From an uncultured Opitutia bacterium (lineage in GTDB: Bacteria; Verrucomicrobiota; Verrucomicrobiia; Opitutales; Opitutaceae): a stretch of DNA of 64,000 bases. Shown here piece after piece: positions 10,735 through 43,150 of this stretch. The stretch's first letter is position 1, and each line of letters opens with the position of its first letter. Location: NCBI GenBank assembly GCA_903820035.1, contig CAIJFT010000286.1, positions 102 through 64,101 on the forward strand. Direction: 5' to 3'. Position numbers and translations under genes: made by a program. The notes below the pieces were generated by a model that worked only from the letters and a program-made list of their open reading frames with translations, searched no databases and had not been told where the DNA came from.

Positions 10735-11178
10735 ACTCCGTGCAATCGGTGGTCTAATCCGGGCGACCCGTTTTAAGGCCGGATCATTTTAACCACAGCG
10801 CGCACCGAGTAGACGGAGTGGATAATACCTCGGACGGCGACGCCCATCAGTCAAAAGCCCCCCGGGCCGGAACCACGACCGCGGCCTTTGGTGTGTTTCG
10901 GGTATTTCTTGGTCCACCCTTCCGACCGGTTCCATCCGCCCTCCGACCAATCCATTTCACGCGGAGCCGCGGAGAACGCGGAGCCCAAGCCACCTGCTCC
11001 CCCGCGGTCTCCGCTCCTCCGCGCCCTCCGCGTGAACCCTTTTTACGCACTGGAGTCCCCACCCCCACTACCACGCCCCCCGCCCGGTCTTCTTCCGTGT
11101 TGTTCCGTGTGTTCCGTGGCCCCCCGGCTTGGTCCGCCGCCTGTCTCCGGCCTTTCGTGTATTTCGTGTGTTTCGCGG
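10735..11178. repeat. Cluster of triple-9-mer repeat arms and hairpins between convergent genes
   Basis: Arms at 10735-10753/10791-10819, 10886-10912, 10956-10983/11009-11036, 11092-11120 and 11152-11178. Confidence 0.85.
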
Positions 11179-11199
11179 TTTCTCCCGGGGTGGAGAAAC
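11178..11199 (-). terminator. Hairpin just downstream of the TBDR stop (possible terminator)
   Basis: gtttctcc-cggggt-ggagaaac, 8-bp stem; no clear U-tract. Confidence 0.4.
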
Positions 11200-40481: not shown

Positions 40482-41294
40482 TCAGGCAAACGTCCGCCGC
40501 AAATACTCTAGGCTCCGGGTCGCGATGGCCTCGGGGCCTTCTTCAAAGGTAAAAACCTCGACCGACACCGTGCCGTTGTAGCCGGTCTCGCGCAACGCCG
40601 CGGCGATGGGCTTGAAGTCGACGTCACCAAAACCCGGCCCCTTGAGATTCTTGTCGTTGGCGTGCACATACGCGAACTCCCCGCGGCTCTCGCGCAGAAT
40701 CTGCGCCACCGGTTTCGCCTCGTGGCTCATCGCGCGCACATCGAGGATTACCTTGAAGTTCGGCGAATCGAGCCCGCGGGTGAAGCGGATGGCATCCGCC
40801 GCGGTGTTGATAAAATCCGTGTCCTCGAGCGGCAGTGGTTCGAAGCAGATCGTCACGCCGCGTTGCTCGGCCAACTTGACCGCCGGTCGGAATACCTCGG
40901 CCGCCCAGGTCCAGGCCTGTTCGAGGGTCACGCCCGGCAACAGGCTCCGCTGCTTCGGCGATCCGACGATGATGCTCTTGCCGCCCAGGTCGGCGCAGAA
41001 GTCGGCGAGGTCGCAAAAATACTGAGCCGTCCGCGCGCGCGTCGCGGCGTCGGGTGACGTCACGTACATCCCCTCGGCCTGCACCAGTACCCAGTGGATC
41101 CCGGAAATCGCGATGCCCGCCCGCGCCGCGGACTCGCGGATGCGGACACGTTCGGCGGGGGGGATGTCGGTCACGTACTTCGCGAGCGTGAACGGGGCGA
41201 TTTCCACCGCATCGTAGCCGATCCGGGCGCAGTAGGAAAAGACGTCGTCGATTTTCCAGTCCTTGAAAATCTCGTTGCAGATGCCGAATTGCAT
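40482..41294 (-). CDS. Sugar phosphate isomerase/epimerase (xylose-isomerase-like TIM barrel; ketohexose 3-epimerase-like), cytoplasmic
   Basis: ATG 41294; metal-ligand pattern FEPL, ILDV, VHAND, SVEVF. Confidence 0.88.
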   Translation of the reverse strand: MQFGICNEIFKDWKIDDVFSYCARIGYDAVEIAPFTLAKYVTDIPPAERVRIRESAARAGIAISGIHWVLVQAEGMYVTSPDAATRARTAQYFCDLADFCADLGGKSIIVGSPKQRSLLPGVTLEQAWTWAAEVFRPAVKLAEQRGVTICFEPLPLEDTDFINTAADAIRFTRGLDSPNFKVILDVRAMSHEAKPVAQILRESRGEFAYVHANDKNLKGPGFGDVDFKPIAAALRETGYNGTVSVEVFTFEEGPEAIATRSLEYLRRTFA

Positions 41295-41352
41295 GGAATC
41301 AGAGAAGGGAGGATTGCGCGCCGGCCGCAATCAAACAACCGGCGGAGTTTGG

Positions 41353-41590
41353 CCCACGGAACACACGGAGAACACGGAAGCGGAAGCCAACCTTCGAAAG
41401 CCGGTGGCTACGAGCGCTCGCGGGCGGCGAATGTGGCCATTCCGATCGATGCAAAGGTTCACGCGGAGCAGCGGAGGTCGCGGAGATTGATCCTGCCCTC
41501 CCTTCCTGCCCCCCCCCGCTTTTCACCTCACCCGCCGCCCTGAACAAGGGAGCCTCGGCGCACTTCCGTGTCTTCCGTGTGTTCTGTGGG
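41353..41590. mobile_element. 238-bp MITE/REPIN-like element with 28-bp terminal inverted repeats
   Basis: 41353-41380 cccacggaacacacggagaacacggaag vs reverse complement of 41563-41590 cccacagaacacacggaagacacggaag: 25/28 identical; no internal ORF. Mobility is inferred only. Confidence 0.55.
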
Positions 41591-41614
41591 CTACTGGATT
41601 GCCGGGCCCGGCAC

Positions 41615-43150
41615 TCAGTGCGCGAAGCCCTTTTCCTCTTCCGGCAGCGGCTGTCCCTTCGTCTCGGGCGCGAACGGCAGCACCATCAACCCGAGCAGAA
41701 AAATCCCGCACATCGTCACACCGGCGTAGCGCATCGGTTCGGGCTGGTCTTTGTAGACTTCGCTGGTGAGCAAGCCAAGGACCGCCGGGCCCGAGGCGGC
41801 GGCAAAGCGGCCGACGTTGTAGCAAAAGGAAATGCCCGTGCTGCGCAGGCGCGTCGGAAACAACTCCGGAAAATACACCGCGTAGCCGCCGAACAGCGAG
41901 AGCTGGCAAAAGCCCATGATCGGAATCATCCAGAACACTTGGCTCCGGTCCTTGAAAAACAGGAATACCATCGCCGTGCTCAGCATCGCCGCCACGAAAC
42001 TCAACGCGAACGTCGGGCGGCGGCCAAGGCGTTGCGAGAGGTAGCTGAAACTCGCGATGCCCGGGAAAGCGCCGACATTGATCATGATCGAGGTCACGCC
42101 GGCCCAGAAGGTCACGGCGCCCGGCACCCGCGCGGGATCCATACCCTCGGCCAGAAAGGCCTTGGTGAACACCGAGCGCATGAGATCGATCGTGAAGAAC
42201 CCGATGCCCCACAGTCCGATGATACCCGAAAGCGCCAACAGCAACCCGACGACGGCGCGGCGGCGCCAGCGCGTGTCGCCTTGACCGCCGAACACACTCC
42301 ACAGCCCGGCCGCGAGCGCGCCCGCCGCCAAGACGATGCCGATCTTTAGTTTCGGCAAACCGGCCCCGCCGAAGAAGGCCACGGCGACAATCGCCACGAT
42401 GAAGCCCGCCGCGAGGAACGCCGGCCTCTGCCATTTATCGTTGCCGAAGAGTTCGGCGTACGAGCCGAGGCTCGCGCCCTTCTTCGCCGGCGCCGCCGCG
42501 GCCGCCTTCCAGCGGTCGGGCTCCTGCAGCCGCGAACGAATCAACAGGGCCAAGAACGCCGGCAGCGCACCAATCACAAACATCCAGCGCCACGCCGAGC
42601 CCACCGCGCCCGATTCCTCGAGCCGGCCGAGCCCCATGCTGATGAGCGCCGCCGACACATTGCCCACGACAGAAAGCGCCTGCAGGAGGCCGAGCGCGTG
42701 CGGCCGGGCGCGGTCCGGCATGACTTCCGCCACAAGCGAGACGCCGACCGCAAACTCACCGCCGACGCCCAGGCCCGTGAGGAAACGAAAGAACGCGAAA
42801 TCCCAAAACCCGGAGGACAGCGCGCTCAGGCCGGTGCAAACGGAGTAGATGAGAATCGTCCACATCATCGTCTTTGCCCGACCGATCCGATCGCCCAGCA
42901 CCCCGAACGTCAGGCCGCCCGTGGCCCAGCCGAGGAGAAAAATGGCGGTCGCGTAACCGCTGTAGAGCGCAACGTCGTCGCCGGGCTTGAGCAACGCCTT
43001 CATCGCCGGCACGCGGGCCAGGTTGAAGAGCTGCTGGTCCATCGTGTCGAAGAGCCAGCCGAGGGCGGCCACCACGAGAACGAACCAGTGGTAACGGTTC
43101 AATTCAGTCCACCACGCGCCGGTGACGCGGGTCGGTTGGGAGGATGTCAT
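41615..43150 (-). CDS. MFS transporter (metabolite:H+ symporter-like)
   Basis: LGWLFDTMD, FGVLGDRIGR motif A, FRFLTGLGVGGE, ELFPTRLRSTG. Confidence 0.92.
   Translation of the reverse strand: MTSSQPTRVTGAWWTELNRYHWFVLVVAALGWLFDTMDQQLFNLARVPAMKALLKPGDDVALYSGYATAIFLLGWATGGLTFGVLGDRIGRAKTMMWTILIYSVCTGLSALSSGFWDFAFFRFLTGLGVGGEFAVGVSLVAEVMPDRARPHALGLLQALSVVGNVSAALISMGLGRLEESGAVGSAWRWMFVIGALPAFLALLIRSRLQEPDRWKAAAAAPAKKGASLGSYAELFGNDKWQRPAFLAAGFIVAIVAVAFFGGAGLPKLKIGIVLAAGALAAGLWSVFGGQGDTRWRRRAVVGLLLALSGIIGLWGIGFFTIDLMRSVFTKAFLAEGMDPARVPGAVTFWAGVTSIMINVGAFPGIASFSYLSQRLGRRPTFALSFVAAMLSTAMVFLFFKDRSQVFWMIPIMGFCQLSLFGGYAVYFPELFPTRLRSTGISFCYNVGRFAAASGPAVLGLLTSEVYKDQPEPMRYAGVTMCGIFLLGLMVLPFAPETKGQPLPEEEKGFAH

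Follow-up and report, generated by a model that had tools for sequence, protein, structure and literature searches.

A 238-bp intergenic hairpin in an Opitutaceae genome is a gene-less copy of a phased-heptamer repeat family spread across the genus

Two bacterial systems in which a nuclease is associated with dispersed repeats, RAYT/REPIN (RAYT standing for REP-associated Y1 tyrosine transposase) and Ssn/SRM, offer close parallels to the element described here. REP sequences are defined as imperfect palindromes of 20–40 bp that carry a GTAG or CGTC tag (PMC3733652), while Ssn proteins are GIY-YIG single-strand nucleases with NTS/SRM hairpin repeats (PMC11893778). A related architecture is seen in the ORF-bearing intervening sequences of 23S rRNA in Coxiella burnetii and Leptospira; that of C. 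burnetii carries a 28-bp stem, which RNase III cuts mid-stem (PMC4990558). The protein family involved in the present case, GxxExxY (PF13366), was listed under 'function unknown' in a PD-(D/E)XK survey of 2012, and is the subject of only a handful of papers in the searchable literature.

We analyzed a window of 64,000 nucleotides (the whole stretch of DNA under study, from contig CAIJFT010000286.1 of assembly GCA_903820035.1), which belongs to a 6.05-Mb Opitutaceae MAG of 65% G+C, labelled G000 in what follows. The window holds a 238-bp element (41353–41590), a copy without a gene of a repeat family that is dispersed over an Opitutaceae genus. Functionally the element recalls a REPIN or an SRM repeat, and in its construction an rRNA intervening sequence, but it belongs to none of these groups. 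With REP/REPIN-RAYT systems, the family shares short dispersed intergenic repeats, mostly in inverted doublets able to form long hairpins, a position between co-directional or convergent genes without target-site duplication, and the character of an old, vertically kept family tied to one small enzyme gene framed by repeats. It differs from them in that its arms are made of three phased heptamers, not of tagged (GTAG/CGTC) self-palindromes, and in that its gene encodes a GxxExxY protein of PD-(D/E)XK fold, not a Y1 transposase, with a repeat abundance that does not track Y1 genes. As in Ssn/SRM (PMC11893778), a small nuclease-family gene is flanked on both sides by a repeat of which tens to hundreds of dispersed copies exist, and variant repeats accompany variant proteins; the gene may also be more frequent where repeats abound, with the exceptions given below. 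However, the protein is PF13366/TIGR04256 (PD-(D/E)XK fold) rather than GIY-YIG and is known from sequence alone, the repeats are phased arrays in inverted arms around variable loops, and a link to natural transformation is known for no member of the heptamer family. The likeness to the 23S intervening sequences (PMC4990558) lies in a terminal stem of ~28 bp around a few hundred nt, in a stem length that matches that of RNase III-cut stems, and in the cargo of sibling elements in G000, which is a PF05635 four-helix-bundle protein or GxxExxY. The 238-bp element, in contrast, lies in an mRNA operon and not in helix 25/45 of 23S rRNA, and it holds no S23p/PF05635 ORF; no assembled 23S genes were found in the 13 genomes searched, which are MAGs.

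The terminal inverted repeat, as given by a repeat finder and by direct reading, is 29 nt long, 90% complementary, and leaves 182 nt between the arms. The left arm (41352–41380, GCCCACGGAACACACGGAGAACACGGAAG) and the right arm (41563–41591, CTTCCGTGTCTTCCGTGTGTTCTGTGGGC), which is the reverse complement of the left one at 26 of 29 positions, each consist of three 9-mers, CCACGGAAC-ACACGGAGA-ACACGGAAG, in which CACGGAA heptamers follow one another at a 9-nt phase. In the left arm the three phased CACGGAA-type heptamers read GCCCACGGAA-CACACGGAG-AACACGGAAG, with the GCCC end directed outward, and the outermost base pair varies between strains (GCCC/GACC). We refer to this heptamer type as dialect A. 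A preliminary description, made from the letters alone, had placed the arms at 41353–41380 and 41563–41590, with 25/28 complementarity and three 9-mers each, in agreement with these values. It had also placed the element between co-directional genes, and both neighbors are indeed on the minus strand: upstream lies an MFS sugar transporter (41615–43150; PF07690, PF00083), and downstream a xylose-isomerase-like TIM-barrel protein (40482–41294; PF01261), whose ATG is at 41294. A spacer of 23 nt (41592–41614) separates the right arm from the stop codon of the MFS gene; it contains a small palindrome, TGCCGGGCCCGGCA, at 41600–41613, and is missing in relatives with an empty site. On the other side, the left arm is 57 nt (41295–41351) away from the start codon of the TIM-barrel gene, and this spacer includes a palindrome, GATTGCGCGCCGGCCGCAATC, at 41312–41332, and is mostly missing in the same relatives.

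The 182-nt interior (41381–41562) holds no credible ORF, its longest frame (82 codons) being Arg/Ala/Gly-rich noise, and it resembles neither GxxExxY or four-helix-bundle proteins nor the interiors of other A pairs. Approximately half of it consists of the arm of another family, the imperfect partner of this arm and a nested inverted repeat. The arm in question is a single one, on the plus strand, of the CGCGGAG dialect. The arm proper (TTCACGCGGAGcaGCGGAGgtCGCGGAG) occupies 41456–41485 (41458–41485 reading TTCACGCGGAGCAGCGGAGGTCGCGGAG), and a conserved 12-nt outer extension, GATGCAAAGG, carries it back to 41444; the whole feature spans 41444–41486. About 30 relatives of the arm exist elsewhere in the genome, often at contig ends, a number taken from BLAST only: a fixed-spacing pattern gave one match versus three in the control, and is unfit for this dialect because the spacing within it is variable. 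In the predicted fold, the arm pairs imperfectly with a tract that is C-rich on the plus strand and G-rich on the minus strand (41490–41519), in which the poly-C/G run differs in length among strains (9 versus 7). Both lie within an inner inverted repeat, whose left half (41420–41438, CGGGCGGCGAATGTGGC) pairs with its right half (41525–41543, CACCTCACCCGCCGCCCTG). The lone CGCGGAG arm that had been noted earlier represents a second family, and the idea that further material had been inserted into the element is borne out by this arm and the nested inverted repeat, as well as by replaced and nested hairpins at another site of the genus (see below).

Adjoining the left arm, there is a GTAG-tagged imperfect palindrome on the minus strand (41385–41411, GTAGCCACCGGCTTTCGAAGGTTGGCT). 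The preliminary description had singled it out as a GTAG unit, and this holds for its format; the combination of a GTAG tag and an imperfect palindrome is 4.1-fold enriched before hairpins in the host genome. As a sequence it is a singleton, with no relative in the genome at ≤7 mismatches, and it is REP-like by format only; one strain differs from it by three substitutions. A REP built on the palindrome CCTGCGC...GCGCAGG also occurs in the genome, approximately 60 times. An Rfam scan of 40800–42100 at E ≤1 yielded, as its sole match, a chance sRNA outside the element, and no promoter or terminator signal in the element exceeded the expectation from shuffled sequence.

Arms of the family were searched for with the pattern CCCACGGAANNCACGGAANNCACGGAA, allowing at most three mismatches (substitutions only), and the same pattern read backwards served as a control. 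In G000, 18 CACGGAA arms were found versus none with the reversed pattern. They include five pairs, with loops of 17, 49, 63, 184 and 406 nt, the 184-nt loop being that of the 238-bp element as measured by the pattern scan. The genome also carries sister dialects in greater number, namely CACGAAA (dialect B; 30 arms) and CAGGAAG/CGGGGAG (65 arms). Within the genus, the CACGGAA arm is present in 51 of 61 genomes, in 1–224 copies each, with forward and reverse counts about equal and a reversed control close to zero. Loops of the genus pairs mostly measure 6–23 nt, while others are of 40, 47, 87–113 and 178–184 nt; loops of ~406–409 nt enclose a GxxExxY gene. The supposition that the arms recur elsewhere as pairs was thus correct, with loops from 6 to ~410 nt. 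A (G)TA precedes only 3 of ~12 A arms. The loop sequence differs at each site, and between copies, both within and between genomes, only the arms match; a simple copy-and-paste of a master hairpin therefore fails to explain the spread of the family. The arms stay at consensus across species that are ~25% apart in coding DNA, and are conserved far beyond neutral expectation.

These data bear on whether the element is a classical MITE, that is, a deletion derivative of a DDE-type insertion sequence served by a transposase in trans. Like MITEs, it is small, non-coding, intergenic and multicopy, it ends in terminal inverted repeats, and its site is empty in other, related species. However, target-site duplication, which had not been obvious by eye either, is absent at all five pairs checked (the element itself, C135, C32, C283 and C457). 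In addition, the only longer element with the same ends, at C457, bears a gene for a 125-aa protein of PD-(D/E)XK fold and no transposase; the copies have unrelated loops, which is unlike MITEs, whose copies have internal sequence in common; and arms remain at consensus over a divergence of ~25%. With target-site duplication, cognate transposase and common interior all lacking, the classical MITE is largely refuted, and we consider it highly improbable.

The gene-bearing pair at C457 (C457:15217–15686 of G000) has A arms and a 406-nt loop that encodes a 125-aa GxxExxY protein (PF13366, 138 bits; TIGR04256, 138 bits). By direct reading of its sequence, this protein retains the motif GFLEAVY as well as D...E-I-K, a motif of PD-(D/E)XK enzymes, and a PDB sequence search with it gave no match at E ≤0.01. 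The gene is on the same strand as its neighbors, and the arms are 2–24 nt from the ORF. A arms tightly flank a GxxExxY PD-(D/E)XK gene in seven other species as well. In G000, none of the four GxxExxY genes or the three PF05635 four-helix-bundle genes is without repeat arms, of one dialect or another, on one or both sides. When the sample was extended to 65 GxxExxY loci from 26 genus genomes, at least 50 of them were seen to be flanked, at 0–25 nt, by inverted phased-heptamer arms of ~10 dialects. In a maximum-likelihood tree, the dialect tracks the protein clade, with 20 label changes versus 46.4 upon shuffling (none of 200 shuffles being as low). Seven of the eight CACGGAA-flanked proteins, from seven species, fall into one clade with 100/100 support, which stands beside the CACGAAA-flanked proteins.

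The number of arms per genome follows the number of GxxExxY genes (rho 0.56, p = 3e-6), but not that of Y1/RAYT genes (rho 0.17), over 61 genomes with phylogeny and genome size ignored in both comparisons. Genomes with an A/B-type gene, defined as one whose protein is ≥56% identical to the C457 GxxExxY, have a median of 26 arms versus 3 in those without it (Fisher odds ratio 19, p = 5e-6; phylogeny and genome size likewise ignored). No A/B-type gene was detectable in the arm-rich genomes G019 (224 arms), G044, G056 and G074. In G017, with 81 arms, the only GxxExxY copy is a distant, CGCGAAT-flanked one of 58% identity with an in-frame TGA, and G000 itself has 30 B arms, yet no B-type GxxExxY gene.

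The element shares with the phased-heptamer/GxxExxY cassettes its inverted arms of about three heptamers, a dialect that is also found flanking the gene, an exactly intergenic seat and an empty site in relatives. The explanation that we favor as the probable one sees in it a composite copy, devoid of a gene, of a phased-heptamer hairpin family found across the genus, whose complete form encloses a promoter-less GxxExxY (PF13366) gene. Our confidence in what the element is is high; as to how it spreads, it is low to moderate. The preliminary description had spoken of a non-autonomous mobile unit. The first half of this term is apt with respect to anatomy, because A arms also flank the gene-bearing copy at C457:15217–15686, whereas for mobility neither target-site duplication, nor a transposase with these ends, nor polymorphism among strains (at three loci) was found.

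A further suggestion in that description was a decayed gene cassette, in which arms formerly enclosed a GxxExxY or four-helix-bundle gene whose ORF then decayed and was partly overwritten. Intact GxxExxY genes between A arms, at C457 and in seven other species, would fit such an origin, as would an interior of 182 nt that far exceeds the usual loops of 6–23 nt. Nevertheless, a tblastn search with 65 GxxExxY and 3 four-helix-bundle proteins finds no coding remnant in the interior (best E ~0.02, in a tiny database), and nine other long gene-less interiors are likewise free of GxxExxY or four-helix-bundle remnants at E ≤0.01. Since no residual coding similarity is left in these interiors, the decayed cassette is without positive evidence; with about half of the interior filled by the other family's arm, its partner and the nested inverted repeat, we regard it as unlikely. 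The unusually long interior was more probably built of other hairpin material, with the CGCGGAG arm set in a nested inverted repeat, than left behind by a gene.

The MFS and TIM-barrel genes abut, or nearly so, in most of the relatives compared. In the orientation of the transcript, the junction of G000 consists of TGA, 320 nt and ATG, while at the orthologous junction the distance is 0 nt in G003 (stop and start codons overlapping), 8 nt in G023, 9 nt in G018 and G024, and 13 nt in G005. The gap had been expected to exceed that of relatives, and it does so by a wide margin: 320 nt versus 0–13 nt in five congeners. Other Opitutales MAGs have 24 and 62 nt. Two further genomes carry hairpins at this same place: G019 has a junction of 121 nt with an unrelated hairpin of 27-nt arms, and in G017 the junction measures 180 nt and its hairpin has inverted arms of three units each, in a different dialect (GCCCGCGAATCACGC...). 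The left junctions of G000 and G017 are alike, and their interiors show a weak local match (score 20 versus 14.8±2.3, reached by 18 of 500 shuffles, p ~0.04), which is only suggestive of homology between the two sequences. In the tree of the TIM-barrel protein, G000, G003, two MAGs and G017+G019 form a polytomy. Given this polytomy and the weak G000/G017 match, the site may have received either a single old insertion, followed by rewriting and loss, or several separate ones.

Four near-identical strains, from other metagenome assemblies, all carry the element with 98–100% identity. Their differences are confined to the outermost arm base, the poly-G run (9 versus 7) and the small GTAG hairpin. 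A variant of the junction measuring 309 nt was noted as well. Every strain found also has the A hairpins at C135 and C32, so that no gain or loss among near-identical strains was observed at three A hairpins, including the 238-bp element. The element probably reached this junction later than, or separately from, the lineages in which MFS and TIM-barrel genes are 0–13 nt apart, and it is now fixed in the species.

A record of how such arms change is provided by the site orthologous to G000:C111:833–930, where more than 40 species of the genus have a hairpin. In more than 30 of these, homology is clear for the loop (CAAAAGACAAAATCCTTTTCCTCGCCG) and for the flanks, but it does not extend to the arms. 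CACGGAA arms are present in ~16 species and CACGAAA arms in G000, G069, G060, G017 and G073. In G017, G073 and G053, a stump of an outer CACGGAA unit remains beside a CACGAAA arm, and G053 is chimeric, with CACGAAA on the left and CACGGAA on the right. G063 has a CACAGAG-type hairpin, and in G061 a whole CGCGAAT hairpin stands in place of the left arm, leaving the right arm solo. One arm of G047 has four units, the loop of G064 is inverted between its arms, and in a clade of eight genomes without arms elsewhere, the arms have drifted from the heptamer pattern. The site is thus an unusually clean natural record, in which arms were swapped, hybridized, inverted or left to decay while loop and flanks stayed constant, and it makes the mechanism of arm maintenance directly testable.

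All six units of a hairpin switch at once, and the boundaries, which lie within the arms or beside them, are sharp; independent mutation does not give such a pattern, which points to copying from other arms. The C111 series shows how solo arms and nested structures originate, and the interior of the 238-bp element looks alike. Maintenance of arms is not universal, since the C111-site arms are degenerate in the G018/G023/G024/G067 clade, where canonical arms are plentiful elsewhere.

The most likely mode of action would link the gene to the arms in several steps. A cognate GxxExxY paralogue would read the heptamer arrays in a sequence-specific manner, and breaks made at the arms would be mended from another copy, which would hold the arms at consensus. 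Cut-and-repair of this kind would allow a dialect to be replaced in situ by a different one and may occasionally seed new sites, the gene-less hairpins being dispersed targets of the paralogue. In a stronger and more tentative form, which we judge to be possible though doubtful, the arms would be a rewritable code: each GxxExxY paralogue would read its own dialect, cut the arrays, and trigger either repair from a template or a resynthesis, one unit after another, at the two break ends. If true, this would explain consensus arms, in-place overwriting and inverted arrays around arbitrary sequence without target-site duplication; it would also cover site-specific loops, solo and chimeric arms, the Russian-doll nesting of the element and, possibly, how rRNA intervening sequences arose. 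The searchable literature, including that on PF13366, on intervening-sequence proteins and on Opitutaceae repeats, yielded no account of arms made of phased heptamers and no role for GxxExxY. The gene-less hairpins and GxxExxY cassettes apparently constitute an undescribed nuclease-plus-phased-repeat hairpin system, and, if the link to the gene holds, the role of GxxExxY (PF13366) would be that of the protein partner in a third bacterial nuclease-plus-dispersed-repeat system, beside RAYT/REPIN and Ssn/SRM.

Alternatively, the element could be REPIN-like and moved by a RAYT that acts on single-stranded hairpins. G000 does encode a RAYT-like protein (C126:4249–5304; NF047646, 66 bits; Y1_Tnp, 41 bits) and a second Y1 fragment, on C10; the absence of target-site duplication fits IS200/IS605-type chemistry, GTAG-tagged REPs exist in this genome, and three A arms are preceded by (G)TA. 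Nevertheless, the NF047646 score of 66 bits is under the family cut-off of 80, and neither of the genes on C126 and C10 has flanking A arms. The arms themselves are direct heptamer arrays with no self-palindromic REP units of 20–40 bp, and the GTAG tag is inconsistent across copies. Across the 61 genomes, the abundance of arms is, as noted above, unrelated to the Y1 count: G060, G069 and G075 have 34–51 arms and no Y1 match, while G042 has 10 Y1 matches and no arms. Movement by a RAYT thus appears quite unlikely.

The stem predicted for the element is strong on either strand. The RNA fold of the transcribed strand has −137 kcal/mol (z = −3.6) and the DNA fold of the plus strand −67 kcal/mol (z = −3.1), the arms forming the outer stem in both cases; this 29-bp stem is present in the minimum-energy as well as in the centroid folds. 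In the operon transcript, it would be a likely substrate of RNase III, and a cut in the stem would part two cistrons that overlap or sit 8–13 nt apart in relatives, in which they are translationally coupled. The family also flags operons in which insertions of this kind may have broken translational coupling.

One could also propose that the host selected the RNA structure itself, as a processing or stabilizing hairpin between cistrons that has no machinery of its own, the family likeness being due to ordinary recombination among intergenic hairpins. Three different hairpins at one junction in three lineages (G000, G017 and G019), a hairpin kept at the C111 site in more than 30 species and a strong stem on either strand are consistent with this proposal, and REP-type repeats elsewhere have been proposed as RNA elements (PMC3733652). 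However, it leaves unexplained why heptamer sequence, phase and number are identical across 51 species, why all six units switch dialect jointly and why the dialect tracks the clade of the enclosed nuclease-like gene; moreover, a junction of 0–13 nt suffices in five congeners. We therefore find selection on RNA structure very unlikely as the full account, and retain the phased-heptamer family with its GxxExxY gene.

In assemblies of Opitutaceae, the same hairpin family accounts for many contig breaks, solo arms and hairpins between genes. One solo arm of dialect A, a member of the arm family outside the element, is found elsewhere in the window on the minus strand (11092–11120), where arms of several dialects are clustered in one and the same orientation. 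Its similarity to the arms of the element, which had been pointed out beforehand, amounts to 93% identity over 28 nt (11092–11119).

At the junction of the MFS and TIM-barrel genes, where the window carries the gene-less hairpin with two inverted CACGGAA arms, the two congeners G017 and G019 have different hairpins. That of G017 (locus L093, contig C23, 670700-671200) is a triple-unit pair of the CGCGAAT dialect, or heptamer type, with an interior of ~70 nt from arm end to arm end, and that of G019 (L094, C74:700-1100) is unrelated, with 27-nt arms and a 12-nt loop. Among strains, a homopolymer run inside the element (window 41500-41508; 9 C on the plus strand) has a length of 7 in three of four others, and in one further strain the junction is shorter by 9-11 nt.

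A second site in G000, the genome that holds the window (C111:833-930), has a hairpin at orthologous loci in more than 40 species (L111, L112, L115, L184-L223), with a loop that is conserved in more than 30 of them. Its arms vary by species, and can be CACGGAA, CACGAAA or chimeric, decayed, or occupied by another hairpin in their place; in G064 the arms enclose the loop in the opposite orientation, and G047 has four units in one of its arms. Many CACGGAA hairpins of G044 (L102-L105, L107, L113, L114, L118) have a common conserved loop of 47 nt. Around these hairpins lies a further repeat, with GCCGCAACCGAAAGAACGGAGAG and its complement as the flanks, which suggests that this genome contains larger composite repeat units.

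Solo arms in G000 form strings at C271:9750-10315 (overlapping C42:1-100) and window 10735-11180, in one orientation and 40-100 nt apart. Such strings mix the CACGAAA, CACGGAA and CGCGGAG dialects, and the order of a CACGAAA arm followed by a CACGGAA arm is repeated at four loci (C245, C271, C58 and window 11092-11178). CGCGGAG-dialect hairpins form a tandem array with a period of ~250 nt (C41:1-1260), directly upstream of a GxxExxY gene. Since an arm of this dialect starts or ends many short contigs (C75, C93, C130, C143, C309, C342, C351), it is probably the cause of assembly breaks.

All three G000 genes of the PF05635 four-helix-bundle (23S-IVS-protein) family (C229:28880-29350, C332:31330-31800, C135:4100-4600) are framed by inverted repeat arrays, built of yet other units: GTTGAGAG, CAGAGGTCAGAG and GGGAGAGGGAAAG. 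The same genome has ~60 GTAG-tagged REPs (CCTGCGC...GCGCAGG) and encodes a RAYT-like Y1 protein of 351 amino acids (C126:4249-5304) with HxH and Y motifs, which scores under the NCBIfam cut-off. A second Y1 fragment (C10:7040-7475) is adjoined by a GGAGCGGCGGTTTTCCAACCGCCGCC hairpin.
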